This document shows, one piece after another, positions 6,807 through 32,142 of a stretch of 32,142 nt of DNA. The position numbers and the translations under genes were made by a program. Each line of letters opens with the position of its first letter. The stretch's first letter is position 1. This stretch comes from Candidatus Dojkabacteria bacterium CG_4_10_14_0_2_um_filter_Dojkabacteria_WS6_41_15 (GTDB lineage Bacteria > Patescibacteriota > Dojkabacteria > GCA-002793355): assembly GCA_002793355.1 (NCBI GenBank), contig PFQB01000098.1:1-32142 (forward strand). The letters are read 5' to 3'. Under the pieces are notes generated by a model. That model had not been told where the DNA came from. It saw nothing but the letters and a program-made list of their open reading frames with translations, and did no database searches.

Positions 6807-7844
6807 ATGGACCAAGAAAAAGCAAACATTTCATTTCCTTCAACAGACGATCTGTTGAAAGCAGGCGCCCAATTTGGACACTCTGCACAACGCTGGCACC
6901 CAGCATTTCAGCCCTTCATTTACAAAGAAACCAAGGGTATTCATATAATCGATGTACGAAAAACTGTACCTGCGTTAAAAACTGCAGTTGAATTTCTTGT
7001 TGCTTCCGTTCAAAAAGAAGCACGAGTATTAATTGTTGGTACGAAAAAACAAGCTGCACCTATTGTATTGGAAATGGGCGAAAAATTTGGAGTTTACTAT
7101 GTAAATGACAAGTGGCCCTCAGGCTTGCTCACAAACTTTAAAACTGTTTCTCAGTCAATTCAAAAATTGCAAAGATTACAAGAACTTCATATCAAAAAGC
7201 GCTATGTGCTTCCAAAAATGGAGTTGCTTGCTATGCAACGAGAAATCGAGAAATTGAAAAAGCGCTTTAACGGCGTTATGTTCATGGATCGACCTCCACA
7301 GGTAATGATTATTATTGATACCAAGTTTGAAAAAATCTCTGTAAAGGAAGCCCGTGCCTTAGATATTCCGATCGTTGGTGTTGTAGACTCGAACTGTGAC
7401 CCAAGACTTATCACGTATCCTATTCCTTCAAACGATGATGCAATCAAGGCAATTCGTTTACTCTTTGGCGTTTTCAGTGAAGTTCTCAGCAAATATAGCA
7501 CTAAGCGCTTGGTTCCTATGCGCGAACAATTTGCTCGACGCTTAGTCGAACTTGAAAAATCTGTAGAAGAAGAGCACCGAATTAAGCTAGCCAGCGAAGC
7601 ACCTCAAGCGGCCTACGAACCAGTGGTTACTCCTCGAGAAGAATCAAAGACAGGTCGAACTGTTCGTGTTACCTCCTTCCGCGCTGTTGCTGATCTTAAA
7701 CTCCCCGCGTCAGTAATCGAGAAACTTACTCAAGCAGGAATTACTTCGGTCGAGCAATTGAAAGAGAAAACTCTCGACGAGCTTAAAGGAATTAAGGGAA
7801 TTGGCGCAAAGACGGCTGAGAAAATAAGCTCATTGGTCAAATAA
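6807..7844 (+). CDS. rpsB: 30S ribosomal protein S2 with an approximately 100-aa C-terminal extension ending in a helix-hairpin-helix motif
   Basis: The S2 core (GAQFGHSAQRWHP, IVGVVDSNCDP) is preceded by a strong SD. The tail contains LKGIKGIGAKTAEKI. Confidence 0.95.
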   Translation: MDQEKANISFPSTDDLLKAGAQFGHSAQRWHPAFQPFIYKETKGIHIIDVRKTVPALKTAVEFLVASVQKEARVLIVGTKKQAAPIVLEMGEKFGVYYVNDKWPSGLLTNFKTVSQSIQKLQRLQELHIKKRYVLPKMELLAMQREIEKLKKRFNGVMFMDRPPQVMIIIDTKFEKISVKEARALDIPIVGVVDSNCDPRLITYPIPSNDDAIKAIRLLFGVFSEVLSKYSTKRLVPMREQFARRLVELEKSVEEEHRIKLASEAPQAAYEPVVTPREESKTGRTVRVTSFRAVADLKLPASVIEKLTQAGITSVEQLKEKTLDELKGIKGIGAKTAEKISSLVK

Positions 7845-22069: not shown

Positions 22070-23656
22070 ATGAAACCTGTCCTACTGATTATAATGGATG
22101 GACTCGGCGTTGGCAAAGATTATGCAGGCAACGCAGTGCTCCATGCAAAAACCCCCACGCTAGATCGATTGTGGACGCGCGCAGATAAGCGGTTGCTTCT
22201 TGGCGCTTCCGGCCCAGATGTTGGGCTTCCTGCTGGTGTTCCGGGCAACAGCGAAGTTGGCCATTTGAACCTTGGCGCCGGTACGGTTGTGTATCAAATG
22301 ATTTCTACCATTAATGATTCGATTATTGACGGATCATTTTTCAAGAGTGAGGTGTTAATTCGCATGGCAAAGGACGTTAATCAGAATCACCGAACGCTGC
22401 ACATTATGGGGCTTTTGTCGGCTTCTGGTGTACACGCGGATGTCCGTCACCTTTTTTCGCTCATGGAATTTTGCCACAAGAATAAGATTGATCCTGTTTT
22501 TCATATTATTACCGACGGTCGGGATACCCCACGCTTCGAAGCCCGTTTTTATCTAAAGAAACTGCGAGAAAAGATGTTCCAATATGGCATGAAACGGATT
22601 GGAAGTGTTAGTGGTCGTTTCTACGCTATGGATCGTAATAATGCCTGGGATAGAATCAAACTTGCGTACGATGCAATGGTTGGGCGCAGTGGACTGAAAG
22701 AAACCGAACCCGAGGTCGCTTTAGAACATGCCTATGCACGGCAAGAAGATGACGAAACTCTGACTCCAACAATTATTGTTGACACCAATGGAAACCCAGT
22801 CGGTCCTGTTACGCAAAACGATGTGGTCCTATTCTTTAATTTTCGCGAAGATCGGGCACGTCAAATCACCAAGGCGTTCGTATCACCAACCGAAAAGTTT
22901 GCAGAGTTCGATCGCCCCTTTGTTATCGAACGCTTTATTACCATGTCAGGGTATGAAGAGGGCCTTCCTGTCGATGTTCTGTTCTCGTCAAAAGAGAATT
23001 ATGAACCAATTTCGGACACGATATCAAAAGCAGGCAAGAAACAATTTCATATTGCAGAAACAGAAAAATATGCCCACGTTACGTACTTTTTTAATGGGGG
23101 GAGAGAGGCGACTGCCGAAGGTGAAGAATTCAGTATAATCCAGTCGCCAAAAGTAAAAGATTATTCAACGGTACCGGAAATGTCCGCCTATCAAGTTACT
23201 GATGTTTTGCTTGAAAGGATGCGAAAAAAGCAGGATGACTTCTATCTGTTGAACTTGGCAAATCCTGATATGGTTGGCCACAGCGGAAAACTTATGCAAA
23301 CTGCGCGTGCTGTCGAAGTTACCGATCGTTGTGTGTATTTTTTGGTAAAAGAAATGCTGTCGCAAGGTGGGCAAGTGCTTATTACTGCAGACCACGGCAA
23401 CGCCGAACAAAAAATAAACCCTGTAACTGGCGAACCAGACAGAAACCATACGTTAAACTTGGTCCCGTTTATGCATATTGTAAATCCTGATGTTTTCGAT
23501 GATGGCAAATGGAATGATGGGACGAATCTTCTTAGGCTGGTATATGATGCAACCGTAATGGACAAAAACGGCATACTTTCTGATATTCCCGCAACTATTC
23601 TCAAGCTGTTGGATGTAAAAGGAGCGGACAGTATGACGGGGCAGAGTTTGGTGTAG
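22070..23656 (+). CDS. gpmI: 2,3-bisphosphoglycerate-independent phosphoglycerate mutase
   Basis: 528 aa. GNSEVGHLNLGAG and ADHGNAE metal-site motifs. TATAAT at 22056-61 lies 8 nt before the ATG. Confidence 0.95.
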   Translation: MKPVLLIIMDGLGVGKDYAGNAVLHAKTPTLDRLWTRADKRLLLGASGPDVGLPAGVPGNSEVGHLNLGAGTVVYQMISTINDSIIDGSFFKSEVLIRMAKDVNQNHRTLHIMGLLSASGVHADVRHLFSLMEFCHKNKIDPVFHIITDGRDTPRFEARFYLKKLREKMFQYGMKRIGSVSGRFYAMDRNNAWDRIKLAYDAMVGRSGLKETEPEVALEHAYARQEDDETLTPTIIVDTNGNPVGPVTQNDVVLFFNFREDRARQITKAFVSPTEKFAEFDRPFVIERFITMSGYEEGLPVDVLFSSKENYEPISDTISKAGKKQFHIAETEKYAHVTYFFNGGREATAEGEEFSIIQSPKVKDYSTVPEMSAYQVTDVLLERMRKKQDDFYLLNLANPDMVGHSGKLMQTARAVEVTDRCVYFLVKEMLSQGGQVLITADHGNAEQKINPVTGEPDRNHTLNLVPFMHIVNPDVFDDGKWNDGTNLLRLVYDATVMDKNGILSDIPATILKLLDVKGADSMTGQSLV

Positions 23657-23675
23657 CAAGATGTGGTACGGATAC

Positions 23676-23704
23676 TTGTCTGTTTTTGCTAGATATCCTA
23701 TAAT
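23676..23704 (+). promoter_or_regulatory. Promoter TTGTCT-17-TATAAT driving a leaderless transcript
   Basis: -35 at 23676-81 and -10 at 23699-704. The ATG at 23710 is only 5 nt after the -10 box. Confidence 0.55.
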
Positions 23705-23709
23705 ACGCG

Positions 23710-24549
23710 ATGGCGGTAGTAAAACCAGCACAAGAGCCTTGGAAAGAAGGTAAACCTCAATCGTATTCAATCAGTGAAATTACTGAAGCAAGAAAAGTTG
23801 GGCTAAGAAGTGACCCAACACTAAGAGCGCAAATGACCCCTATCGAAGGGAGAACGGCTTCTCGTGGCATAGCTTATGTGAATTTAGGCTTAATTGCGAA
23901 GCATGGCGCAGACCAAAGCGACGTAATTTTTGGTGGGCACGACGACAGTTGGAGTGTTGCTGCTGTAAACACCTCTTGTCTTGATTCTGTTGATGGTATG
24001 GTCGGTTCAGGTAGAGCAATTATCGAGACGAATAGTCAACGACCAAAGGTTAATACTACATATGCACTAGATACAGATTTGAAAGATCCCAATGCTATTT
24101 GCGTTGATATCGAAAGTGAGGCGTTGCCCGGTAAGCACGGCTTAGGTTTGGCACTTTGGACAAAGAGTGGCAATAAACCTGTGCAAATTGACTTAACAGA
24201 TCCAGATTTAAGTGCGCTGGCAATAGTGAACAACTCATGTTTGTTGCCTATACTGTATGAATTGAAAGTGCCTACAGATACAGGAACTATCGACATTTCA
24301 CTCGAAATCATCATGACGAACCAGCAGCTAGATATACGTATTATCAGTGCTGAAGCACACTTTAGTATTCAAGTTCCTAAAGCTTCAATGTCTGTCTTTA
24401 ACGAATTAACTTCTGACGTGTTTGACTCATTATGTCAAGGCAAAGTATTTAACCCTTATCGCCCGAAAGTATACAAATTCAATAAGGATAGTTCTCCTTC
24501 GAATCTGGGAATTTCAGCAGTTGGTTCTGGCTCGTGGTATCTTTCATAA
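23710..24549 (+). CDS. Orphan cytoplasmic protein, function unknown
   Basis: 279-aa ORF with its own promoter and no recognisable motif. Confidence 0.6.
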   Translation: MAVVKPAQEPWKEGKPQSYSISEITEARKVGLRSDPTLRAQMTPIEGRTASRGIAYVNLGLIAKHGADQSDVIFGGHDDSWSVAAVNTSCLDSVDGMVGSGRAIIETNSQRPKVNTTYALDTDLKDPNAICVDIESEALPGKHGLGLALWTKSGNKPVQIDLTDPDLSALAIVNNSCLLPILYELKVPTDTGTIDISLEIIMTNQQLDIRIISAEAHFSIQVPKASMSVFNELTSDVFDSLCQGKVFNPYRPKVYKFNKDSSPSNLGISAVGSGSWYLS

Positions 24550-24578
24550 TCTGCAATGAGTACAAGCACATAAATTAT

Positions 24579-24587
24579 TGATATAAT
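24579..24587 (+). promoter_or_regulatory. Extended -10 TGaTATAAT driving a leaderless transcript
   Basis: Element at 24579-24587. The ATG at 24593 is 5 nt after the -10 box. Confidence 0.55.
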
Positions 24588-24592
24588 ATAGG

Positions 24593-25495
24593 ATGTTTGA
24601 CAACTTGGAGAATCTTGGTGGTGATTCTGAAGATTCACTTGCTAGGTTAATGCAAGATGCGAGAGAAAATGGATTACAGATTCAGACTATACCAGGGAAT
24701 CATTCTATTGGAGGAGGTCGTTCAATATTCGTTTTTGTTACCCATCCTCGCCAAGATGGAGATGTTCAATTGGCTTATTATGAAGTTGAGGACACATATT
24801 ATGAACTTGGTGAGCATACTGTGGACTGTTCTCTTGCAGGTGAAGGCTTTCAGTGTGAAAGTGGAGAACGTACTATCTTAACTGGCCAGAATCCTGGAGC
24901 TGAATGCCATTCAATAATAACATTTCCGACTGCAGGTGGCACACCAAATATGGCGATGAATTTTCAGGCATCCTCCTATATGCTTGCAAATGGAGGTAAA
25001 ACTTCGCAATCTGTTGAAATTACGATTGGGGCAGCGTCTGTAAGTCTAAATCTTGACGATTTTGAATTAATTGATGATTCTGCCCTTGAAGCAGTCGAAA
25101 CAGATTCTGGCGCTGAAGTTGGGGCTGAGGATGATATTGTATTTGATATTGATGAGAAGGGGCTTCATCTAGTCGAGAGCTCGCGATGCCAAGAAGAAAT
25201 AGTCCAGGATATCGATTTGACTTCAGCATTATTTTTCGATGAAGTACGAAATACAAGAAAATACCATTTAGAAGGCTTGGCACATCCTATTGCTGTTACC
25301 TGCTTTCGCTACGCCTCGCATACTCTTATCACGTTGCGCTATCAAGGAACAAAAATAAAAGTGGATTTTCCTGTTCCGACAAGCGAGGGATTATTAGATA
25401 TTGAAGAAATGGTTGGGTATGCACTGCAAGATGGAAATCTACCAATGTTTGCGGTCCCAAAAGTGGTTGATTTGCAAAGACACCTTGCGCAATAA
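24593..25495 (+). CDS. Orphan protein with a central acidic segment, function unknown
   Basis: 300-aa ORF with the acidic stretch DDFELIDDSALEAVETDSGAEVGAEDDIVFDIDE. No motif recognised. Confidence 0.6.
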   Translation: MFDNLENLGGDSEDSLARLMQDARENGLQIQTIPGNHSIGGGRSIFVFVTHPRQDGDVQLAYYEVEDTYYELGEHTVDCSLAGEGFQCESGERTILTGQNPGAECHSIITFPTAGGTPNMAMNFQASSYMLANGGKTSQSVEITIGAASVSLNLDDFELIDDSALEAVETDSGAEVGAEDDIVFDIDEKGLHLVESSRCQEEIVQDIDLTSALFFDEVRNTRKYHLEGLAHPIAVTCFRYASHTLITLRYQGTKIKVDFPVPTSEGLLDIEEMVGYALQDGNLPMFAVPKVVDLQRHLAQ

Positions 25496-25548
25496 CAAAT
25501 TCTGAATACTTGAATTTTCTTTTTTTGAAAAATGCTACAATGTTTTCG

Positions 25549-26793
25549 ATGACCCGAGTCCTCGATTTTTTTAAGAAATACTGGCTACCCATAACACTGA
25601 TTTCGCTGGCGATAACGTCCAAGTTTATTGGTTTTCTGCGTAATGCCTTTATCGCCTACTTCTTTGGCGCGTCGTATACGTCGGATTTGTTGGGAATTTT
25701 GATGTTTCCAACGGACTTTGTGTTGGCATACCTGATTAACCAAACGATTATTACCGCGTTAACAATCTTTTTCTCGCGAGACCAATCTGCAAAACGGGAA
25801 GTTTTTTTACGAACGTTCCATTTTTACCGGGTAATTCTCACTATAGCTTCGGTAGTCTTGGCAATTGTGATGATTGTTGTGTATCCAACGGTTCCCTGGC
25901 AGTACGGTGTTTTAGCAGCGATCCCCGGGATTTTCTATGGTATGGCGGGCATTATTCAAAGTTACCTGAACTACAATCGGGTATTTATATGGCCAGCAAC
26001 GCAAGAATTAATTGCGAATCTCGTTTTGTTATTCGGCGTTGCTCTTGCTGCGAAATACGGAATTTATTGGTATGTGGTGGTGATGATTGCGGTGGGAATG
26101 TTGCGGATTTTAGTGATGTACCCCGATTTGCGCAGACTGCTGGCGGATAAACCCTGGATTCGCGAATTATTTGGTATTCAGAAGATAAAGTTTGAAAAGG
26201 AATTACTTATTTATATCGGCCCGATTTTATTTACTTTTATTTTGTCGGGCCTGCCCGGCTTCCTGATTTTGCACAAGCTAAATGCAGCCGGCGAAGGCTA
26301 CATTGCAGCATACAACTATGCCAACAAGATTATCAACCTGTTTAACCCCATTTTTGTGATTCCGCTGACCACCTACCTGATTCCCACCATGCAACGGTGG
26401 ATAGAAGAGAAACGATCAGTTGTTGCGGTCAATACGACCGCTTTCTTGTTGCTGGGCTCGGCCTCTTTTGCCTTCGCCCTCGTCCTCGTCCTCTGGCCCG
26501 ACTTTCTAATAAACGCGATTTATGCCCGTGGGCACTTTGACCATCAAGCCTTGTGGTTAACCAGTAAGTTCCTGCGGTATCAAGCGTTTGCGGTGGTGGG
26601 CTACGCGCTGATGTACTACCTGTTGCAGTTGACGTTGCTGCATAACAAGCCCCGGCGTCTGATGGCCTCGTTTATTCTGGGCACGCTGGTGATCATCGGG
26701 CTACTGTATTTCTTGCCCTTTGCCCCGTACATTACGGTTGGTCTCTCGCTGACGTTGGGGGTGCTGGGGAGTATAGTTGTGTTGATACTTTGA
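25549..26793 (+). CDS. murJ: Lipid II flippase MurJ/MviN family
   Basis: Multi-TM protein. The N-terminal KFIGFLRNAFIAYFFGASYTSD matches the MurJ signature region. The start is uncertain (TTG 25510, ATG 25540 or ATG 25549). A TGcTACAAT element at 25533-41 favours a leaderless start at 25549. Confidence 0.8.
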   Translation: MTRVLDFFKKYWLPITLISLAITSKFIGFLRNAFIAYFFGASYTSDLLGILMFPTDFVLAYLINQTIITALTIFFSRDQSAKREVFLRTFHFYRVILTIASVVLAIVMIVVYPTVPWQYGVLAAIPGIFYGMAGIIQSYLNYNRVFIWPATQELIANLVLLFGVALAAKYGIYWYVVVMIAVGMLRILVMYPDLRRLLADKPWIRELFGIQKIKFEKELLIYIGPILFTFILSGLPGFLILHKLNAAGEGYIAAYNYANKIINLFNPIFVIPLTTYLIPTMQRWIEEKRSVVAVNTTAFLLLGSASFAFALVLVLWPDFLINAIYARGHFDHQALWLTSKFLRYQAFAVVGYALMYYLLQLTLLHNKPRRLMASFILGTLVIIGLLYFLPFAPYITVGLSLTLGVLGSIVVLIL

Positions 26794-26890
26794 AAGATGT
26801 AACTATTCCTTTACAACAAGTAATATATGAGAAATACTATCTTGATATGGTAACAAAGTATACATTCAAGGAGTATCGAAAACATACCGT

Positions 26891-27163
26891 TTAAGGATTA
26901 TCATTGGAACTTGGTATTTCGAATAAAATTCCAGTTGATTGAAATTTTTCATACAGTGCATCAAGAATAGTTTCTTCAAGGTCTTTAGGTAAGCGCTTGG
27001 GTGTACCTAATATATCACCAGAACGAACCCCACTGACAACAACGATACATGTGCGAATTTCAGGTGGTAATGATATTGAAACACTACAGTAATAATTTGC
27101 AAAGTTTTGTGAACAGAAATCTTCTGTGAATGTTTGAATGTCTTGTTTGGTTATTTCTTTCAT
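26891..27163 (-). CDS. Small hypothetical protein (90 aa)
   Basis: The only ORF longer than 60 aa in the 1.56 kb gene-poor region. On the minus strand a TGtTACAAT element ends 6 nt before its ATG, the leaderless arrangement used elsewhere in this window. Confidence 0.4.
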   Translation of the reverse strand: MKEITKQDIQTFTEDFCSQNFANYYCSVSISLPPEIRTCIVVVSGVRSGDILGTPKRLPKDLEETILDALYEKFQSTGILFEIPSSNDNP

Positions 27164-27246
27164 TCGTTAATTGTAACATGGTGCGAAATGCTTGCTATTA
27201 CGGAATAGTCACCAAAATGTATTATGTGGATGTGGTTAGAATGAAC

Positions 27247-27255
27247 TGATATAAT
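27247..27255 (+). promoter_or_regulatory. Extended -10-like element TGaTATAAT
   Basis: Read directly from the sequence. No clear -35 box. Confidence 0.3.
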
Positions 27256-27297
27256 CAGAGCCTACACACTTTACCTCTTTAATGAGAATCACAATAC

Positions 27298-27327
27298 TTG
27301 ACTTGCGTCAAGTATCCGTACTATAAT
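27298..27327 (+). promoter_or_regulatory. Promoter TTGACT-18-TATAAT with a palindrome over the -35 box
   Basis: -35 at 27298-303 and -10 at 27322-27. The palindrome ACTTGAC-ttgc-GTCAAGT spans 27296-27313. Confidence 0.6.
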
Positions 27328-27333
27328 ATCGAT

Positions 27334-27430
27334 ACAAACAAATATTGGGGCTGTTTGCTAGATACAGGCAGCACCAGAGGAGAGAAACGAGCGTCTCAAT
27401 TTCAGAGAAGCCACGCCTCTCTTTTTTTTG
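27334..27430 (+). ncRNA. Candidate small RNA of about 97 nt, from the predicted TSS to the intrinsic terminator
   Basis: The predicted +1 is at 27334 (A, 7 nt after the -10 box). It contains no ORF. It ends in a bulged GC-containing hairpin (27379-27422) followed by T8 (27422-27429). Confidence 0.4.
27379..27429 (+). terminator. Intrinsic terminator-like hairpin plus U-tract
   Basis: GGAGAG(27379-84)/CTCTCT(27417-22), GCGT(27391-94)/ACGC(27413-16), and an inner CTC/GAG pairing, followed by eight T residues. Confidence 0.45.
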
Positions 27431-27475
27431 GCCGACGTCTTGTTTGACCTTAATTGGCATTTTTGCCCGGATTTC

Positions 27476-27504
27476 TTGACAAGCGAGTGCGGCCCAATTA
27501 TAAT
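27476..27504 (+). promoter_or_regulatory. Perfect consensus sigma70-type promoter TTGACA-17-TATAAT
   Basis: -35 TTGACA at 27476-81, a 17-nt spacer, -10 TATAAT at 27499-504. Predicted +1 at 27511 (A). Confidence 0.7.
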
Positions 27505-27597
27505 TGTAGTAACTTTATTTTCTCAGGCTATCTAAATCGCAAGGCCAGAGAAATATAAATATTTGTTTGTTTTTCCAACGACGTAAGGAGAGACAAA

Positions 27598-27660
27598 ATG
27601 CTCAGCTTTGACCAGTCAAATAGGATTAGGTTGGCTTTGTGTATGTTCTTTAACAATTAG
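27598..27660 (+). CDS. Mini-ORF of 20 aa (MLSFDQSNRIRLALCMFFNN), a possible leader peptide
   Basis: Strong SD TAAGGAGAG (27584-92) 7 nt upstream of the ATG. Ends AAC AAT TAG. Confidence 0.35.
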   Translation: MLSFDQSNRIRLALCMFFNN

Positions 27661-27670
27661 ACGGAGATAT

Positions 27671-27904
27671 GGTACACCCTTCTAGATTAAGCAAACAGGA
27701 GGTATTTTACAATGGCTAAAACGAAGTCATCTAGTTACGGCGTTCAGCGTCAGAAAATTGTTCCAGTAAGAAGTTACAGAACAAAAAACGGTACTAGAGT
27801 GAGAGGTCATCGAAGATCTACACCAAACTAGTACCAAACAGGTATTAAGGCATCTCATACGCAAATATGAGTGGTACATAATTTAACCCTCGGAAGGGTG
27901 TACC
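27671..27904 (+). repeat. 12-nt long-range inverted repeat bracketing the 39-aa mini-ORF
   Basis: GGTACACCCTTC (27671-82) is the exact reverse complement of GAAGGGTGTACC (27893-904). Confidence 0.6.
27712..27831 (+). CDS. Mini-ORF of 39 aa, a highly basic peptide (MAKTKSSSYGVQRQKIVPVRSYRTKNGTRVRGHRRSTPN)
   Basis: SD CAGGAGG (27696-702) about 9 nt upstream of the ATG. 12 of 39 residues are Lys or Arg, plus one His. Ends AAC TAG. Confidence 0.5.
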   Translation: MAKTKSSSYGVQRQKIVPVRSYRTKNGTRVRGHRRSTPN

Positions 27905-27914
27905 TTACCTCTAT

Positions 27915-28029
27915 CTAAAGAAGATATTTAAGAATCTCGTAGTAGCTCCAATTTGTAGAGCAATGGGCCGTTAACTCATTGGTTACAGGTGCGAATCCTG
28001 TCTACGAGATTCTTAGTTATCTTCTTTGG
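27915..28029 (+). ncRNA. Extended leader/trailer helix that coaxially continues the acceptor stem of the tRNA-like element
   Basis: 27915-27935 pairs with 28009-28029: about 21 bp with one mismatch and two G-U pairs. The discriminator base (28009) is included in the pairing. Confidence 0.5.
27936..28009 (+). tRNA. tRNA-Asn(GUU)-like cloverleaf, non-canonical (C33, G55, no GG in the D-loop, no encoded CCA); possibly a tRNA mimic or pseudo-tRNA
   Basis: Manual fold. Acceptor CTCGTAG/CTACGAG. U8 A9. D-arm GCTC-CAATTTGTA-GAGC. Anticodon arm ATGGG-CCGTTAA-CTCAT. Variable loop TGGTT. T-arm ACAGG-TGCGAAT-CCTGT. Discriminator A. Confidence 0.5.
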
Positions 28030-28351
28030 GGAATTATATTAGGGACAAGTACTGGAAATTTTTCCATATCATTTATATGATAGTGCGGTAAACCTTACTT
28101 GTCAACAATGCTTATTGTAACCCACATTACCGCTCACTGTCAATACTATAGGTTAGCCATTCCCCATTATTCCTCTTAACTCCAACCTAAGTTATTTCAT
28201 TGTTTTTCTATCTCTTGCGGTCAGGGGATAGTTACCTAGAAAGATGAGGTTGACAGCAAGATTACAATGTTAGATACTCATTAATGGTATTGAAACTACT
28301 TGAGGTGGCAATCCTCACAATTGCACCTTTGCTTGCAAAGATTAGACTTCC

Positions 28352-29011
28352 GTGGTCCCCATAGTGAGTGTCTCTTCATTGCTTCTAAAAAAGGATTGGT
28401 TAGGGCTTTATCTTAGCCGATTACCCTTCCCTAAAAGCCTGTATTATTTTGTGTTTTTGTCGCGTTATTATAAGTTTTTACTAGAATACCTTTCTCTTGA
28501 ACAAATTGTGGTATTGCACCAAGGGTATGAAAAATACCTCGATTCTGAACTATCAAGTAAAGCGCTACTTGATACTCTGTTGCTAGACACATTAATATTC
28601 GCTAAGGCGTATGAAGATGATAGGACACTGGAGTTGATTTTAGAAAATTGGACGGAGACAATAGTTAAGGCTCATTCGTTCGATTTAGTAAAAAGAGCAA
28701 CTGAGGACCAAATCGTTCTGAGAGTAGAACGTGCTATTTACCTATTGTTAGATACAAGAAATCTGATGCCGAATGACGTATCGCAGTATAAACAATTTTT
28801 TACCAGCTATTACATTATGCGCCAAATATTTGATGATATTGGTGATTACGTTGATGATATGCGTAATGGGATACGTACTTTCGTTCTAGAGGTTGGAAAG
28901 GTGAAGGCAAGAGAAACGATATTGAAGCACCACTTTAATATTCAGCGATTACAGATGCCTCTATATTACAAGCGTTTAATTAATTTGTACTGTCAATATT
29001 ATCTTAAATGA
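28352..29011 (+). CDS. Hypothetical helical protein with Asp-rich motifs faintly resembling class I isoprenoid synthase folds
   Basis: 219-aa ORF with a GTG start (uncertain). RQIFDDIGDYVDDMRNGIRTF resembles the second Asp-rich motif region of phytoene/squalene or polyprenyl synthases. AKAYEDDRTLE is a possible first motif. Confidence 0.45.
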   Translation: MVPIVSVSSLLLKKDWLGLYLSRLPFPKSLYYFVFLSRYYKFLLEYLSLEQIVVLHQGYEKYLDSELSSKALLDTLLLDTLIFAKAYEDDRTLELILENWTETIVKAHSFDLVKRATEDQIVLRVERAIYLLLDTRNLMPNDVSQYKQFFTSYYIMRQIFDDIGDYVDDMRNGIRTFVLEVGKVKARETILKHHFNIQRLQMPLYYKRLINLYCQYYLK

Positions 29012-29082
29012 GGTGACGCAGTCTTCTAGTAGCTTATTAAGTAAAGATGAATTTGCGCAGATTCTGAGTTGGTGTGGAAGCA

Positions 29083-32000
29083 CTAGTTTAATGGCCACTT
29101 AGGTAATAATCCATCAATTTCTTTCATAATTCTGTCAGTATTTACTAATGCAACAATAATTCTCTGATAGTGTAGAACTTCATCAAAAGTAAGTTTCTTT
29201 CCTTTTCTATCTTTTAGCCATTTCTGAGTTGGTTGATAACCACCGATATATAAATCCCATGCAATTTGAGGAACATTATCAAAATATTGAGTATCATTTA
29301 TCCAAACCTTATTTTCTGAATACTTAAGATTAATAACTTCGTTTTCACCTGCTACTGGATATTGTGTGATTAACGAACTGCTATTTGGATGTTCCATCAA
29401 GTGATTCTGTCTAATTACTCTACCTTTTTCTACTAATGACCAGAATAGCTTTTGATCAGATGTGAATGGAATTCGTGGAAAATCAAATTTCAAGAATTCT
29501 TTGTATCGTTCTCGATATGTTGGAGAGTGAAGAATTGCGTAAACATAATCAAGCACATCCAATGGATTGAATGTCCCTTCTTTGCCTGAATCAGCGTGTT
29601 CGTGATCGGGTATAAATTGAAGCTTTAGCTTTTGTGCTATTTCAGCAATGATTTTTTCGTCAAGGTTTGGTTTGCGAGTTGAAGAATCAAGTTGGTTTTC
29701 TGAGTATAAATATAAAGGAAACATGTAATCTGAACCTTGGACACCAGGACAAGAATAGACTCGAATATCTGCGATTTCATTGGTTATATGGCATGGTGGA
29801 GAATTAAAGTCTTGTCCTCTTTTTGTAATAATTGAATAATTATCATATATCATATGACTATTAATCTTTTTGCCTGGAGTTCCAATAAATCCTTTTGAAT
29901 TACCTGAATACCATGTCCATCGTTTATCAAAAGGGCGATACAGTACTTCTTTATACAAATCCGAATGAATGTTTCTGCGGACGTCATTTACTGCATTCTT
30001 TAACTTCCAATCTCGTGTATCGTATGTGCTGTACTTGTTTTTTAAAGATATTTCATCTAGTTTATAAAAATCATTAACAACATTTTTAATATCACTAATA
30101 CTTGATTGAATACATATGCTATCTCTCTCAGTTTTTAATCCTGAACTGTACAACCTAAATAAATCTTGAATAGAAAAGTTGGCATTATTTTCTCCTGCAA
30201 GTTCAAGATTTTTATGTACAAAAAAGTATTCTGGTTCAAGATAATCAAGCTTCTTCCATTTCAATTTATTAACATTGCTTTGTAATGCTTCATACTTCTT
30301 TTCTCTCTTGCCCCACAATTCAGAATGGTAAACTTCTCCAAGTTTGTGCTTAGAACTCCTGTTTTTTACAAAAATATTGATACTTACGCCTTGCATAATA
30401 TCGAATACATTTTCATCTTTAGAACCGTCTGGCGATACTTCTTTCTTTTTTGCATTTCCATGCAAATCCAAAATATAAATCTTGTTAAATGTTTCTAGTA
30501 ATGATTTTCTCATCTGCCTGTGTGTTATTCCGTCAATAAACGAATTGTTTGAGATATACGCAATAATCCCCTCACCATTTTTTTCAATAAACCACTGAGC
30601 ATAACGAATGAACTTGATATAATCGTCATCTAAGTTCAATTTCTTCTCCTTTAGATCCTTTTTGTAATCTTTGATGAGATTTTGAATCCACTCGCCCTTA
30701 TTTGAACTACTTATTGAGTAAGGAGGATTCCCCATAACAACCATAATTGGCTTTTCCTTCTTAACCTCGTTAGCTTCCATACTTTCAGTAGTAAGCCATT
30801 GTGAAAACAAATCTCTTTGATGCGCTTCTGGTTCTTCTAGAGTGTTCGTAAGATACACACCTAAACGCTTTCCTTGCCCCTTAGATGAGTCATAACCAGT
30901 TTCTGCGAGAGTAATATCAAGTTTAAGATGAGCCATTGAGTAACTAGCCATCAGAATCTCAAAACCATGAATTCTTGGGAGTAAGTGCTCGTCAACGTAG
31001 CCTTGCCAAATACCTTGTTGGCCTTTGAATTTCGAGTTATAGATATGCTTTATTACATGATCAAGAAATGTACCAGTACCAGTAGCGGGGTCAAGTACTT
31101 GAACTCTGTGTTCCATTGCCTTTTGTTTCTTCTTGCTACCTTGTACTTCTTTTTCAACTTCAATTTTGCATGTATCTGCCAAACCATCTGTAATCCCAAA
31201 TTCAGTTTTAAGTATGTCATCGACAGCCCTTACAATAAAATCGACTACAGGTTCAGGAGTATAGTAAACACCTCTAGACTTACGCATTTTTTGGTCGTAC
31301 TCTCCAAGAAATGTTTCGTAAAAGTGAATAATTGCATCATGTCGTTTTGTTTCCTTGCCATAGTTTGCAAGGAGTTCGCGAACGTCAACATGGTTAAACA
31401 ATTCCGCAAGGTCATCAACAATCCATACGATTCTTTTATCGATGTTGTAGCCTGCGATAGTTTGAAAAAAGTTTCTAAGAAATGGATTCGATTTTGGTAG
31501 TAAACTGTTAGCTTCATCTCTGGTAAATGTATTCAAAGAATTATCATGGTATCGCGCTGCAAACATACCGTATGCTACTGTTTGAGCATAAATGTCCGCA
31601 TATTGTTCCAATGATAAATCGTGAATAAGCATTTGTTTAAATACTTCATATTGTTGTTCAACTTGTCCTTTTTCTTCTGACTCATCCTTCAATGATAGAT
31701 ACACAACATTTTTGAGCATTTTCGCCTTTTCAGCCATCAACGAAGCAAGTTCCTTGGGACTTCTAATAGAAATTGATTTTTGTGTTGTAAAATTTTTAAG
31801 GATGCTTTCGAGTAAAGGAATATTATCTGGTATTAACTCAATCGTGTTATCTATAAGTCTTGCGATAGCCACTTTCTGAATCGCTTGTCCATCAAGATAA
31901 AAGTGAAAATCCAAGTAATTAGTAAAGCAGAGATTGTTTAAGGAAGCTTTGTATCTATTGAACTGATTCTTTGTTTTAAATTCCTTCTCTAAATCAATAT

Positions 32001-32142
32001 CGACATCCTTTGCTTCAATATAACCGATTGGGGTTTTACCTTTAAGTAATACAAAGTCAGGTGCGCCAACTTTTTGTTGCTTTGGATCGTTTACTGCATT
32101 TATAGATGGATTTATAGATTCGACCAATGCCTCTAAAGCCGG
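29083..32142 (-). CDS. Type IIG restriction-modification fusion enzyme: PD-ExK nuclease, gamma-class N6-adenine methyltransferase and a target-recognition domain. The 5' end is partial at the window edge.
   Basis: N-terminal PDFVLLKGKTPIGYIEAKD (PD...ExK), SAM motif VLDPATGTGTFL, catalytic VVMGNPPYS, and a C-terminal HSPTYRERYKEFLKFDFPRIP block typical of the type IIG/ISP specificity region. The reading frame stays open upstream of the annotated TTG at 32127 to the end of the window. Confidence 0.85.
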   Translation of the reverse strand, partial: PALEALVESINPSINAVNDPKQQKVGAPDFVLLKGKTPIGYIEAKDVDIDLEKEFKTKNQFNRYKASLNNLCFTNYLDFHFYLDGQAIQKVAIARLIDNTIELIPDNIPLLESILKNFTTQKSISIRSPKELASLMAEKAKMLKNVVYLSLKDESEEKGQVEQQYEVFKQMLIHDLSLEQYADIYAQTVAYGMFAARYHDNSLNTFTRDEANSLLPKSNPFLRNFFQTIAGYNIDKRIVWIVDDLAELFNHVDVRELLANYGKETKRHDAIIHFYETFLGEYDQKMRKSRGVYYTPEPVVDFIVRAVDDILKTEFGITDGLADTCKIEVEKEVQGSKKKQKAMEHRVQVLDPATGTGTFLDHVIKHIYNSKFKGQQGIWQGYVDEHLLPRIHGFEILMASYSMAHLKLDITLAETGYDSSKGQGKRLGVYLTNTLEEPEAHQRDLFSQWLTTESMEANEVKKEKPIMVVMGNPPYSISSSNKGEWIQNLIKDYKKDLKEKKLNLDDDYIKFIRYAQWFIEKNGEGIIAYISNNSFIDGITHRQMRKSLLETFNKIYILDLHGNAKKKEVSPDGSKDENVFDIMQGVSINIFVKNRSSKHKLGEVYHSELWGKREKKYEALQSNVNKLKWKKLDYLEPEYFFVHKNLELAGENNANFSIQDLFRLYSSGLKTERDSICIQSSISDIKNVVNDFYKLDEISLKNKYSTYDTRDWKLKNAVNDVRRNIHSDLYKEVLYRPFDKRWTWYSGNSKGFIGTPGKKINSHMIYDNYSIITKRGQDFNSPPCHITNEIADIRVYSCPGVQGSDYMFPLYLYSENQLDSSTRKPNLDEKIIAEIAQKLKLQFIPDHEHADSGKEGTFNPLDVLDYVYAILHSPTYRERYKEFLKFDFPRIPFTSDQKLFWSLVEKGRVIRQNHLMEHPNSSSLITQYPVAGENEVINLKYSENKVWINDTQYFDNVPQIAWDLYIGGYQPTQKWLKDRKGKKLTFDEVLHYQRIIVALVNTDRIMKEIDGLLPKWPLN

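Follow-up and report, generated by a model that had tools for sequence, protein, structure and literature searches.

The contig PFQB01000098.1 of Candidatus Dojkabacteria bacterium CG_4_10_14_0_2_um_filter_Dojkabacteria_WS6_41_15 (assembly GCA_002793355.1; 32,142 nucleotides, all of which were analysed and are referred to here as the window) carries, directly after the murJ gene, a stretch of about 1.45 kb poor in open reading frames (ORFs) which is probably a discrete, strain-specific cassette composed of small separate units and devoid of any large RNA. As a whole it resembles a mobile insertion cassette, that is, a non-autonomous insertion bounded by repeats, located at the junction between the housekeeping backbone and a defence island. 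Its right-hand 1 kb has the layout of a self-contained expression unit, with one promoter (P1) for a predicted small RNA (sRNA), a second promoter (P2) followed by a leader, an upstream open reading frame (uORF), a gene of 39 codons and a tRNA-like gene, and a pair of antisense promoters.

The interval 26794-28351 had been singled out in an initial annotation, made by inspection of the sequence, as a nearly ORF-free, promoter-rich and structure-rich region in an otherwise tightly packed genome, and it was proposed to harbour either large ornate non-coding RNAs or the regulatory core of a small integrated element. The general description holds. From the murJ stop (26793) up to the following long ORF (28352), the sole ORFs of at least 30 aa are a minus-strand ORF of 90 amino acids (aa) and short or mini-ORFs, and the rest of the window is indeed tightly packed with housekeeping genes (those for DprA, TopA, RadC, ribosomal protein S2, EF-Ts, RRF, RseP, ProRS, YbeY, Pth, HPF, an ABC-transporter ATPase, RF, iPGM, and MurJ). 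The stretch is also AT-richer than the backbone, as had been judged by eye, with a computed GC content of 37.1% for the insert vs. 41.5% at 1-26795, while the downstream segment (28249-32142) is lower still at 34.8%. The neighbours were likewise named correctly: MurJ lies to the left and a Type IIG / Type ISP restriction-modification enzyme to the right. The coordinates of all features are collected in Table 1.

A haplotype border at the murJ stop codon

Evidence that the stretch is a discrete unit comes from related haplotypes (loci and contigs used for comparison are designated by L numbers). The Logan contig L001 encodes an identical MurJ protein, is 99.1% identical to 23625-26795 and then resumes at 28249 with 80.6% identity; together with L074 it represents an empty-site haplotype, 99% identical through murJ, in which 26796-28248 is exactly missing, so that the window carries about 1,447 extra bases relative to both. 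L074 (empty) and L063 (occupied) share one ENA sample, ERZ27293351. A scan of metagenomes with MurJ as the query gave a single extra locus, L073, where murJ is 97% identical and a gene for an OmpR-type response regulator overlaps the murJ stop. The three haplotypes, 97-99% identical through murJ, part completely at the same base (window 26786-26799; L001 3160-3180; L073 570-585) and continue with the cassette, a 219-aa ORF and the Type IIG enzyme in the window, with a homologue of the 219-aa ORF (77-80% identical) and other genes in the empty-site haplotype, and with the response regulator in L073. Since the response regulator follows murJ immediately in the latter, the murJ stop marks the border of a strain-variable island. 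The murJ stop codon is a recombination border of a variable restriction/defence island, which in the window holds the 219-codon ORF, with no known family, and the Type IIG/ISP enzyme.

The 90-aa ORF occurs on about 27 contigs, and the examined ones share one context with nearly 100% identity; some 10 assemblies, obtained from several samples, contain an essentially identical cassette. Contigs L070-L072 differ inside the cassette at 1-3 positions only, too few for covariation analysis. Two of them, L070 (JGI 3300008094) and L071 (ENA ERZ27293368), end exactly at 27701, inside the Shine-Dalgarno (SD) sequence of the small gene, and have two variants in common, 26808 C>G and a U8 tract shorter by one T at 27422; this coincidence suggests a further haplotype which would diverge from 27702 onward.

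The ends of the insertion are marked by repeats of two kinds. A perfect 8-nt direct-repeat core, GAAAGATG, occurs at 26792-26799 and 28239-28246 within copies that match imperfectly over 14 nt; the pattern TACYTWGAAAGATG is matched twice in the window, both times at the junctions (0.05 matches expected), and L001/L074 hold one copy. The left junction reads ACTTTGAAAGATG|TAACTATTCC, the right junction GGGGATAGTTAC-CTA-GAAAGATG|AGGTTGACAGC, and the empty site ACTGTGAAATGGTGTTGACAGC. The second kind is an inverted repeat, in which 26799-26825 pairs with 28209-28235 over 27 nt (74%, the outer 8 nt perfect) and with an internal third copy at 27191-27212 over 22 nt (77%). The inverted end motif GTAACTATYCC has three matches in the window (both ends and 27212) vs. 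0.79 expected, and the 22-nt motif common to the end copies, including the internal one, is GTrACTATyCC.T.A...CAAG (degenerate pattern of the end repeat: GTRACTATYCCNTNANNNCAAG). The third copy delimits a left module of 414 bp holding the 90-codon ORF, for which no match was obtained in Pfam, NCBIfam, PHROG or PADLOC, whose sole match among 5.8 billion protein clusters is itself and upstream of which no SD sequence is visible; it is an orphan and probably non-coding.

ORF and family scans detected no transposase, integrase or repressor inside the insert, and the combination of repeat-bounded ends with the absence of a transposase underlies the resemblance to a mobile insertion cassette. The proposal of a regulatory core of a small integrated element comes close to these findings as regards the discrete insertion, the repeat-bounded ends, the dense promoters, the predicted small RNAs and the small gene of mobile-element type, but with no integrase, transposase or repressor present the term cargo cassette fits better. 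Searches for DNA similarity with the whole insert gave no match among phages and one 78-nt match of chance level among plasmids, and exact-pattern scans of IMG/VR with the T arm plus acceptor and the anticodon arm of the tRNA-like gene, the left end and the sRNA hairpin gave none.

Mobile insertion cassettes (MICs) and miniature inverted-repeat transposable elements (MITEs) carry passenger DNA between inverted repeats of insertion sequence (IS) type and lack a transposase (PMC4337579). The insert shares with them its discrete presence or absence in a sister haplotype, terminal inverted repeats, a flanking direct repeat, passenger genes and the missing transposase, and differs from them in that a single copy is known and no cognate IS was found, in the offset of 3-4 nt of its direct repeat and in the third, internal copy of the end. 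IS66 elements make 8-bp duplications. Inverted repeats of this family begin GTAA (PMC12888890). The cassette ends begin GTAAC and its direct repeat measures 8 nt, the similarity to IS66 ends being limited to 5 nt.

Promoters, small gene and bracket stem of the right module

The description of the region as promoter-rich was upheld by counting: four of the five sites in the 32,142 bp that match TTGACA-N16-18-TATAAT at 11 or more of 12 positions fall inside 26796-28248, a density about 84 times that of the rest of the window. These are P1, P2 and the two antisense promoters; the third plus-strand element that had been noted is an extended -10 sequence, TGATATAAT, visible at 27247-27255. The intrinsic terminator reported earlier corresponds to an irregular hairpin (27376-27427) running into a U8 tract (27422-27429), but a strict scanner made no call, so the structure is terminator-like rather than a textbook example. 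On the minus strand, an 8-bp hairpin with a loop of about 28 nt lies inside the small gene (27790-27833; GGUACUAG...CUAGUACC, followed by GUUUUUUGUU) and might serve as the terminator of an antisense RNA, about 300 nt long, transcribed from the promoter at 28105 or 28143; it came to attention only through a sub-threshold alignment to the L10 leader.

Secondary structure is concentrated in the centre of the insert. The fold of 27510-28050 has z = -6.8 relative to shuffled sequences, whereas 28030-28360 folds no better than its shuffles (z = -0.2) and 26796-27215 reaches z = -1.6. Among the local hairpins listed by the initial annotation, 27854-27871 and 28086-28092/28128-28134 are present in the folds, but the one given as 27520-27552 folds as 27514-27559; of its two long-range inverted repeats, the 13-nt one is exact (27334-27346/27558-27570), but the 12-nt one matches at 11 of 12 positions (27279-27290/28273-28284). 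The two most striking repeats, with 26-nt arms at 27657-27682/27893-27918 and 27917-27942/28002-28027, had not been listed. The former encloses the small gene and the latter the tRNA-like gene.

The 13-nt repeat connects the predicted sRNA with the P2 leader: the first 13 nt of the sRNA, counted from the predicted P1 start, are the exact complement of 27558-27570. A run of this length between sRNA and leader was reached in 1 of 2000 dinucleotide shuffles of the sRNA; when the insert is shuffled as a whole, 12% of the shuffles contain an exact repeat of at least 13 nt at some place, and hence the complement is suggestive, not conclusive. RNA-RNA duplex energies (RNA.duplexfold) were discarded as a test of this pairing because shuffled sequences scored equally, and the exact-run statistic was used instead. 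The P2 transcript is predicted to start near 27511. In the leader fold, the hairpin 27566-27576/27587-27597 sequesters the SD sequence of the uORF, and the sRNA complement overlaps the anti-SD strand of this hairpin, which offers a simple activation model. The uORF is not conserved in other loci of the small gene.

The 39-codon gene is the part of the cassette with relatives elsewhere. Its very basic product matches phrog_21154 (E = 5.2e-8, residues 12-39) and is 74-82% identical to the family proteins P0002-P0008, the ORF being intact and typical of the family. A word-indexed search found homologues in 8 clusters of the 5.8-billion-cluster protein set; others occur at 40 loci in GTDB species genomes, which belong to Patescibacteria (Komeili-, Woese- and Buchananbacteria, Saccharibacteria), many Clostridia, Gammaproteobacteria metagenome-assembled genomes (MAGs) and one Bathyarchaeia MAG, and on 10 IMG/VR contigs, and a full search with a hidden Markov model collected 135 representative proteins, one per 50%-identity cluster. 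Nucleotide differences to 32 homologues number 315, 331 and 694 at codon positions 1, 2 and 3, respectively, and this third-position excess indicates that the ORF is translated. In every family locus the nucleotide similarity to the window ends at the borders of the coding sequence. An antisense ORF across the gene was also considered and rejected, as it is open in only 15 of 48 homologues.

Residues 15-38 correspond to one copy of a repeat, VxVxGYTRxDGTxVxxHxRSxP, of which larger proteins carry 2-6 copies. One family member (P0046) reaches the cut-off of Pfam PF08789, the PBCV-specific basic adaptor domain (21.3 vs. 20.4 bits); the 39-aa protein itself does not match PF08789 even at E <= 10. 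It resembles the PF08789-type proteins in carrying a copy of the repeat and departs from them in being a single, free-standing copy, with an N-terminal motif of its own (MAKTKSS). An AlphaFold2 model of low to moderate confidence (predicted local distance difference test score 69.8, predicted template modelling score 0.31) has a small beta sheet and no helix, and a sequence search of the PDB with the family profile returned nothing significant. Extreme basicity and the short repeat-type fold suggest that the protein probably binds nucleic acid.

The neighbours of the small gene in other genomes belong consistently to mobile or defence functions. They include an integrase, an M78/ImmA peptidase, LexA, RloB with AAA_21, PDC-S01, AlbA_2 proteins (twice directly downstream) and type I hsdM/hsdS with a large serine recombinase; in one arrangement the gene lies between the type III genes res and mod. 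A tRNA within 100 nt of the gene was found in L013 only and on the opposite strand, and tRNA linkage was rejected as a trait of the family. In two unrelated genomes the small gene is directly upstream of, or overlaps, a gene of about 420-450 aa for a Schlafen-related DNA/RNA-binding AlbA_2 protein, as if the two formed an operon (L005 6001-7444; L029 4001-5381); the assignment is confirmed by Pfam for L005 and follows from N-terminal similarity to it for L029, and neither protein has a PADLOC match. In eight Clostridia loci of prophage-like character (L020, L034, L038, L043, L044, L047, L059, and L010) the small gene begins about 100 nt after a gene ending ...YGKKAFRFWV, identified in L010 as an M78/ImmA peptidase; a conserved hairpin precedes it and includes, on its 3' side, the ribosome-binding site GGAAGGGAG of the small gene. 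The hairpin has the look of an alternative leader of the family, one that sequesters the SD sequence.

The stem that brackets the gene in the window is present in both the minimum free energy (MFE) and the centroid structure (z = -5.2). Its occurrence elsewhere was assessed by scoring, for 52 non-redundant loci of the family, how well the 200 nt before the gene pair with the 150 nt after it, with upstream and downstream flanks taken from different loci as the null (maximum score 14.7). Five loci stand out: L028 (22.3), L041 (19.4), L019 (17.9), the window (17.8), and L058 (14.5). Pairs were counted by script in a fixed register of 22 pairs, since a MAFFT alignment of the arms introduced gaps. 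In this register 98 of the 110 cells are standard pairs and in 19 of the 22 pairs both partners have changed; when the register is shifted, 37-53% of cells pair, and arms combined from different loci pair at 10.8 of 22 positions on average. The only sequence that the arms of the five loci have in common is an inner CCCC/GGGG core. In the sense strand G-U pairs outnumber A-C mismatches, which would be G-U in the opposite strand, 16 to 6 (p = 0.026, all five loci; 11 to 1 in L019 plus L028), an excess that modestly favours an RNA stem on the mRNA strand. The pairing pattern indicates that the bracket stem is selected for, and maintained by compensatory change around the small gene in other lineages.

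The geometry is constant in L019, L028, L041, and L058, with 91-103 nt separating the 5' arm from the ATG and 17-32 nt lying between the stop and the 3' arm; the window carries a shorter variant (28 nt and 60 nt, respectively) which lacks the hairpin GACUGCAUUAAGCAGU shared by the leaders of the other four and absent from Rfam. This conserved leader hairpin (GCAGACUGCAUUAAGCAGUYGGC) precedes a 38-aa subtype of the small gene and occurs as a compensatory variant, GACCACAUUUAGUGGUC, in L019; its hosts are Patescibacteria, a Gammaproteobacteria MAG and an IMG/VR contig, with a single exact match in IMG/VR, and several of the genes behind it have no obvious SD sequence.

The clamped tRNA-Asn-like gene and the surroundings of the cassette

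The tRNA-like module that had been noticed by eye was recovered by Infernal at 27936-28009 (RF00005; 52.8 bits vs. a gathering score of 29) and by ARAGORN as tRNA-Asn(GTT). It is enclosed by a clamp of two 26-nt arms (27917-27942/28002-28027), 92% paired, which consists of the acceptor stem extended by 19 flanking base pairs; the clamped fold has -52.6 kcal/mol and z = -8.1, and the stem occurs in both the MFE and the centroid structure. The gene passes the tRNA model, with a GUU anticodon, and yet deviates at the universal nucleotides U33, G18-G19 and U54-U55-C56: the anticodon loop reads CCGUUAA (C33), the T loop UGCGAAU (G55), and the D loop, CAAUUUGUA, lacks GG. CCA is not encoded. All 12 other tRNAs in the fetched loci, seven of them from Patescibacteria, have U33 and the D-loop GG, and score 59-70 bits. 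Bacterial tRNA-Asn normally has G73 and a U1-A72 pair (GatCAB). This identity set is incomplete in both possible registers, the one given by Infernal having C1-G72 and A73 and the one given by ARAGORN U1-A72, an acceptor stem of 8 bp and U73. As judged from these features, the gene may be either a divergent working tRNA of the mobile-element type or a tRNA mimic.

Several known systems offer partial parallels. The E. coli tyrT operon co-transcribes tRNA-Tyr genes with tpr, which encodes a protamine-like basic protein of about 30 aa; the cassette similarly joins a gene for a very small, very basic protein and a tRNA gene in one short predicted transcription unit, but in reversed order and with long clamping stems that tyrT is not known to have. 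YrlA-type bacterial Y RNAs display a tRNA-like domain on a long stem formed by their paired 5' and 3' ends (PMC4201824). The cassette RNA shares this arrangement of a tRNA-derived fold atop a long stem of flanking sequences, and differs in its complete anticodon arm, with the GUU anticodon, and in having no Rfam hit but tRNA; no Ro60/Rsr (TROVE-domain) gene was found among the ORFs scanned in the window, and the Ro-binding helix motif was not recognised. GUU-type tRNAs are among the targets of colicin E5. Variant tRNAs of phages and mobile elements have been proposed to resist anticodon nucleases through changes in the anticodon loop, and colicin E5 is discussed in that context (PMC10264068). 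The cassette tRNA gene lies likewise on mobile DNA in a defence-island setting and has an altered anticodon loop (C33); unlike those tRNAs, it resides in a cellular genome, no nuclease partner was identified, and changes also affect the discriminator, the first base pair and both the D and the T loop, which calls aminoacylation into question. By this analogy, escape from anticodon nucleases may be taken as a lead only.

Beyond the cassette, the 219-codon ORF (28352-29011) lies between it and the restriction enzyme and contains a DDIGDYVDD motif. It is called as a gene of 186 aa on L002, L003, and other JGI/ENA contigs and of 215 aa on L067 and L069, belongs to no family and has one other cluster among the 5.8 billion proteins. 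In the backbone, the gene for ribosomal protein S2 (6807-7844) encodes 345 aa, of which about 110 form a C-terminal extension with matches to the profiles of helix-hairpin-helix and RNA polymerase alpha-CTD domains, an unusual fusion. Directly 5' of murJ, two ORFs of 279 and 300 aa (23710-25495) have no match in Pfam, NCBIfam or PHROG and are 99% conserved in L001.

Table 1. Features of the insert and its borders (window coordinates unless a locus is named)
Feature	Position	Strand	Remarks
Strain-specific insertion/deletion	26796-28248		about 1,447-1,453 bp; exact ends ambiguous within the direct repeat
Left direct-repeat copy, TACTTTGAAAGATG	26786-26799	plus	overlaps the murJ stop TGA (26791-26793)
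Left terminal inverted repeat, GTAACTATTCCTTTACAACAAG...	26799-26825	plus	
90-codon orphan ORF	26891-27163	minus	coding status doubtful
Internal third end-repeat copy, GTGACTATTCCGTAATAGCAAG	27191-27212	minus	same orientation as the right end
Promoter P1, TTGACT-18-TATAAT	27298-27327	plus	11/12
Predicted small RNA	27334-27429	plus	about 95 nt, two hairpins, U8 tail; -30 kcal/mol, z = -2.6; no Rfam match
Promoter P2, TTGACA-17-TATAAT	27476-27504	plus	12/12, sole perfect site in the window
5' leader	27511-27656	plus	hairpin 27514-27559; sRNA complement 27558-27570; hairpin 27566-27576/27587-27597; z = -3.4 and -2.7
20-codon uORF, MLSFDQSNRIRLALCMFFNN	27598-27660	plus	SD AAGGAG 27585-27590; stop inside the 5' arm of the bracket stem; read from the sequence
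Bracket stem, 5' arm	27657-27683	plus	pairs with 27892-27918, 26-27 nt, 85%
Gene for very basic 39-aa protein, MAKTKSSSYGVQRQKIVPVRSYRTKNGTRVRGHRRSTPN	27712-27831	plus	SD GGAGG 27698-27702
Bracket stem, 3' arm	27892-27918	plus	abuts the tRNA clamp stem
Clamped tRNA-Asn(GUU)-like gene	27917-28027 (tRNA 27936-28009)	plus	26-bp stem
Tandem antisense promoters	28143-28114 and 28105-28077	minus	11/12 each; directed towards the tRNA-like gene and, beyond it, the small gene
Right terminal inverted repeat, GTAACTATCCCCTGACCGCAAGAGATA	28209-28235	minus	
Right direct-repeat copy, TACCTAGAAAGATG	28233-28246	plus	core 28239-28246
Promoter-like site of the 219-codon ORF	28250-28278	plus	outside the insertion; kept in the empty-site haplotype (L001, L074 alignment)
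Leader hairpin in other loci	L028 3950-3985; L041 3945-3985; L058 555-580; L032 3935-3965; L019 3900-3930		

Possible workings, rival explanations and meaning

The arrangement of the right module permits a scheme of expression, of which the steps of processing and regulation, taken alone, are put forward as tentative and rather doubtful. P1 would give the terminated RNA of about 95 nt, and P2 a single transcript of at least about 520 nt that runs from the structured leader through the uORF and the small gene to the tRNA-like RNA. Both duplexes, each about 26 bp long, may serve as processing or stability elements of RNase III type, as do the stems of rRNA operons, and cleavage there would free a small mRNA and a tRNA-like precursor from the primary transcript. 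Pairing of the 5' end of the small RNA with the leader, beside the anti-SD strand, would open the ribosome-binding site of the uORF; ribosomes finishing the uORF would then enter the 5' arm of the bracket and could tune the processing or translation of the 39-codon gene, and antisense transcription from the two promoters may add repression. RNase III stems bracket 16S and 23S rRNA, and stem-loops of this kind lie between the early genes of phage T7. Like the stems of rRNA operons, those of the cassette are two abutting long duplexes (at least 20 bp), each around one product; unlike them, they enclose a 39-codon mRNA and a tRNA-like RNA, and their cleavage is a prediction.

The notion that the region houses one or more large ornate structured RNAs tied to a tRNA, whether of the GOLLD, ROOL, OLE, HEARO or raiA type or new, had its attraction in 1.5 kb of ORF-poor DNA which folds well below shuffled controls and lies near a tRNA in foreign-looking surroundings, GOLLD and ROOL being often found near tRNAs as the initial annotation pointed out. 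A cmscan with the 4227 families of Rfam 15 returned tRNA only, with none of GOLLD, ROOL, raiA, HEARO or OLE at the gathering score in the window or at E <= 10 in 26700-28500, so the GOLLD/ROOL idea fails; weak hits to the L10 leader, a plant miRNA and a fly lncRNA are artefacts of the long stems. Instead of one long non-coding transcript (400-800 nt or more), the stretch is cut by two plus-strand promoters, a terminator-like hairpin, a coding ORF and a tRNA; its strongest structure amounts to two simple long stems around the ORF and the tRNA, both flanks of the structured centre fold poorly, and in about 60 related loci nothing outside the 120-nt protein-coding stretch is conserved, leaving no homologous non-coding sequence. 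A large RNA is thus hardly to be expected here, and the region is several small separate units, one of them a protein gene. A second rival regards the insert as decaying debris of a dead integrated element, such as the edge of a prophage or of an integrative and conjugative element with a captured, degenerating tRNA, whose signals have no current function. The orphan 90-codon ORF, the lack of integrase, transposase and repressor, the deviant tRNA positions, the 39-codon coding sequence as the sole piece conserved elsewhere, and the location of the small gene at prophage immunity regions or integrase edges in other genomes all suit it. Decay agrees poorly with four intact near-consensus promoters (one perfect), an intact family-typical ORF, two 26-bp stems that are 85-92% paired, a cassette preserved essentially unchanged across some 10 assemblies of several samples and a bracket stem kept by compensatory change in other lineages, and debris is considered unlikely.

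Two further rivals concern the right module. If the 26-31-nt inverted repeats around the small gene acted in DNA, either as an inverton flipping the gene between P2 and the antisense promoters or as the ends of a mini-transposable element, this would account for the inverton-like geometry of five loci (19-35-nt inverted repeats flanking 210-290 bp), the large serine recombinase located 180 bp from the unit in L028, the facing promoters on both sides of the unit in the window, the break of two independent assemblies at 27701 inside it and the even G-U to A-C ratio of the window. However, scans showed no recombinase within the window or close to the unit in L041 and L019 (around L058 a part of the neighbouring genes was scanned), neither contig breaking at 27701 contains the inverted order and target-site duplications beside the arms are absent; moreover, the arms are unconserved except for CCCC/GGGG, although the sites of one common recombinase or transposase should show conservation, and over all five loci the G-U pairs of the sense strand are in excess (16 to 6). 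Action in DNA appears quite improbable. About equally improbable is a locus resembling type I toxin-antitoxin systems, with a 39-aa toxin, an mRNA locked by 5'-3' pairing and the small and/or antisense RNA as antitoxin. Type I loci with 5'-3' locked mRNAs and a coupled upstream frame are exemplified by hok/mok/sok, tisB/istR-1 and aapA/isoA, and most type I toxins are membrane peptides. With such loci the cassette shares an ORF of less than 60 codons, a long structured leader, a long-range stem around the ORF, a uORF placed like mok in hok/sok, an adjacent predicted small RNA with a perfect 13-nt complement to the leader, convergent antisense promoters and a mobile/defence context. It differs from them in its protein, which is hydrophilic and extremely basic, has no hydrophobic helix, is without a PADLOC match and ends in 25 residues that occur as a repeat many times in large proteins, an ill fit for a dedicated toxin; in addition, homologues are not accompanied by conserved counterparts of the small RNA or of the antisense promoters.

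The reading as a discrete cassette with a self-contained expression unit has its own weak points. Cleavage by RNase III, pairing of the sRNA with the leader and coupling through the uORF are inferred from the sequence, and the small RNA, the uORF and the tRNA linkage are not seen beside the small gene in other loci. The occupied contigs are all nearly 100% identical and, for this reason, covariation can be tested in the cassette for the bracket stem alone, and across non-homologous loci; inverted repeats in DNA yield the same compensatory pattern as RNA stems, and the count of G-U to A-C in the window itself is 2 to 2. With respect to mobility, a gap of 3-4 nt separates the 8-nt direct repeat from the right inverted repeat, no cognate transposase is known, the window holds no other copies of the end repeat, and searches of phages, plasmids and IMG/VR turned up neither the cassette again nor further copies of its ends, of the small RNA or of the tRNA-like gene. 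The indel would be explained equally well by site-specific integration at the GAAAGATG core or by a deletion that removed the segment between short repeats from the other haplotype.

An extended version of the cassette reading, speculative and regarded as improbable, takes the whole as a working RNA-centred accessory module of defence islands. The bracketed small-ORF transcript would then be a new class of structured mRNA across phyla, with a long 5'-3' stem that contains a conserved CCCC/GGGG core and, in four loci, the leader hairpin GACUGCAUUAAGCAGU, tied to restriction-modification and defence and fused here to a tRNA-Asn mimic (C33, G55, no G18G19) clamped by double-stranded RNA; once released by RNase III, the mimic would have no role as an ordinary tRNA and might act as a nuclease-resistant spare, as a decoy for anticodon nucleases, or as a processing or regulatory RNA working with the 39-aa protein.

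The general kind of element is familiar, namely a small cargo cassette in a defence island with a phage-type small gene and a mobile-element tRNA. The 39-aa family, the cross-phylum bracketed small-ORF unit and a tRNA-Asn-like gene clamped by double-stranded RNA, with altered universal positions, are not described in the literature and databases searched. The analysis removes a false lead, replacing a giant ornate RNA by more concrete parts. The cassette is among the smallest self-contained accessory cassettes imaginable in a reduced genome of Patescibacteria type, and it is apparently seen here as a presence/absence polymorphism, at the margin of a defence island. Members of its small-protein family, at least 135 representatives, are found from Patescibacteria to Clostridia, in phages, in the immunity regions of prophages and in restriction/defence islands, and a long-range stem kept by compensatory change around the gene in five unrelated loci is hard to explain without a function. 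Given tRNA-targeting immunity and the variant tRNAs of mobile elements, a tRNA-like gene with three altered universal positions and a 26-bp clamp is a cheap and testable candidate.

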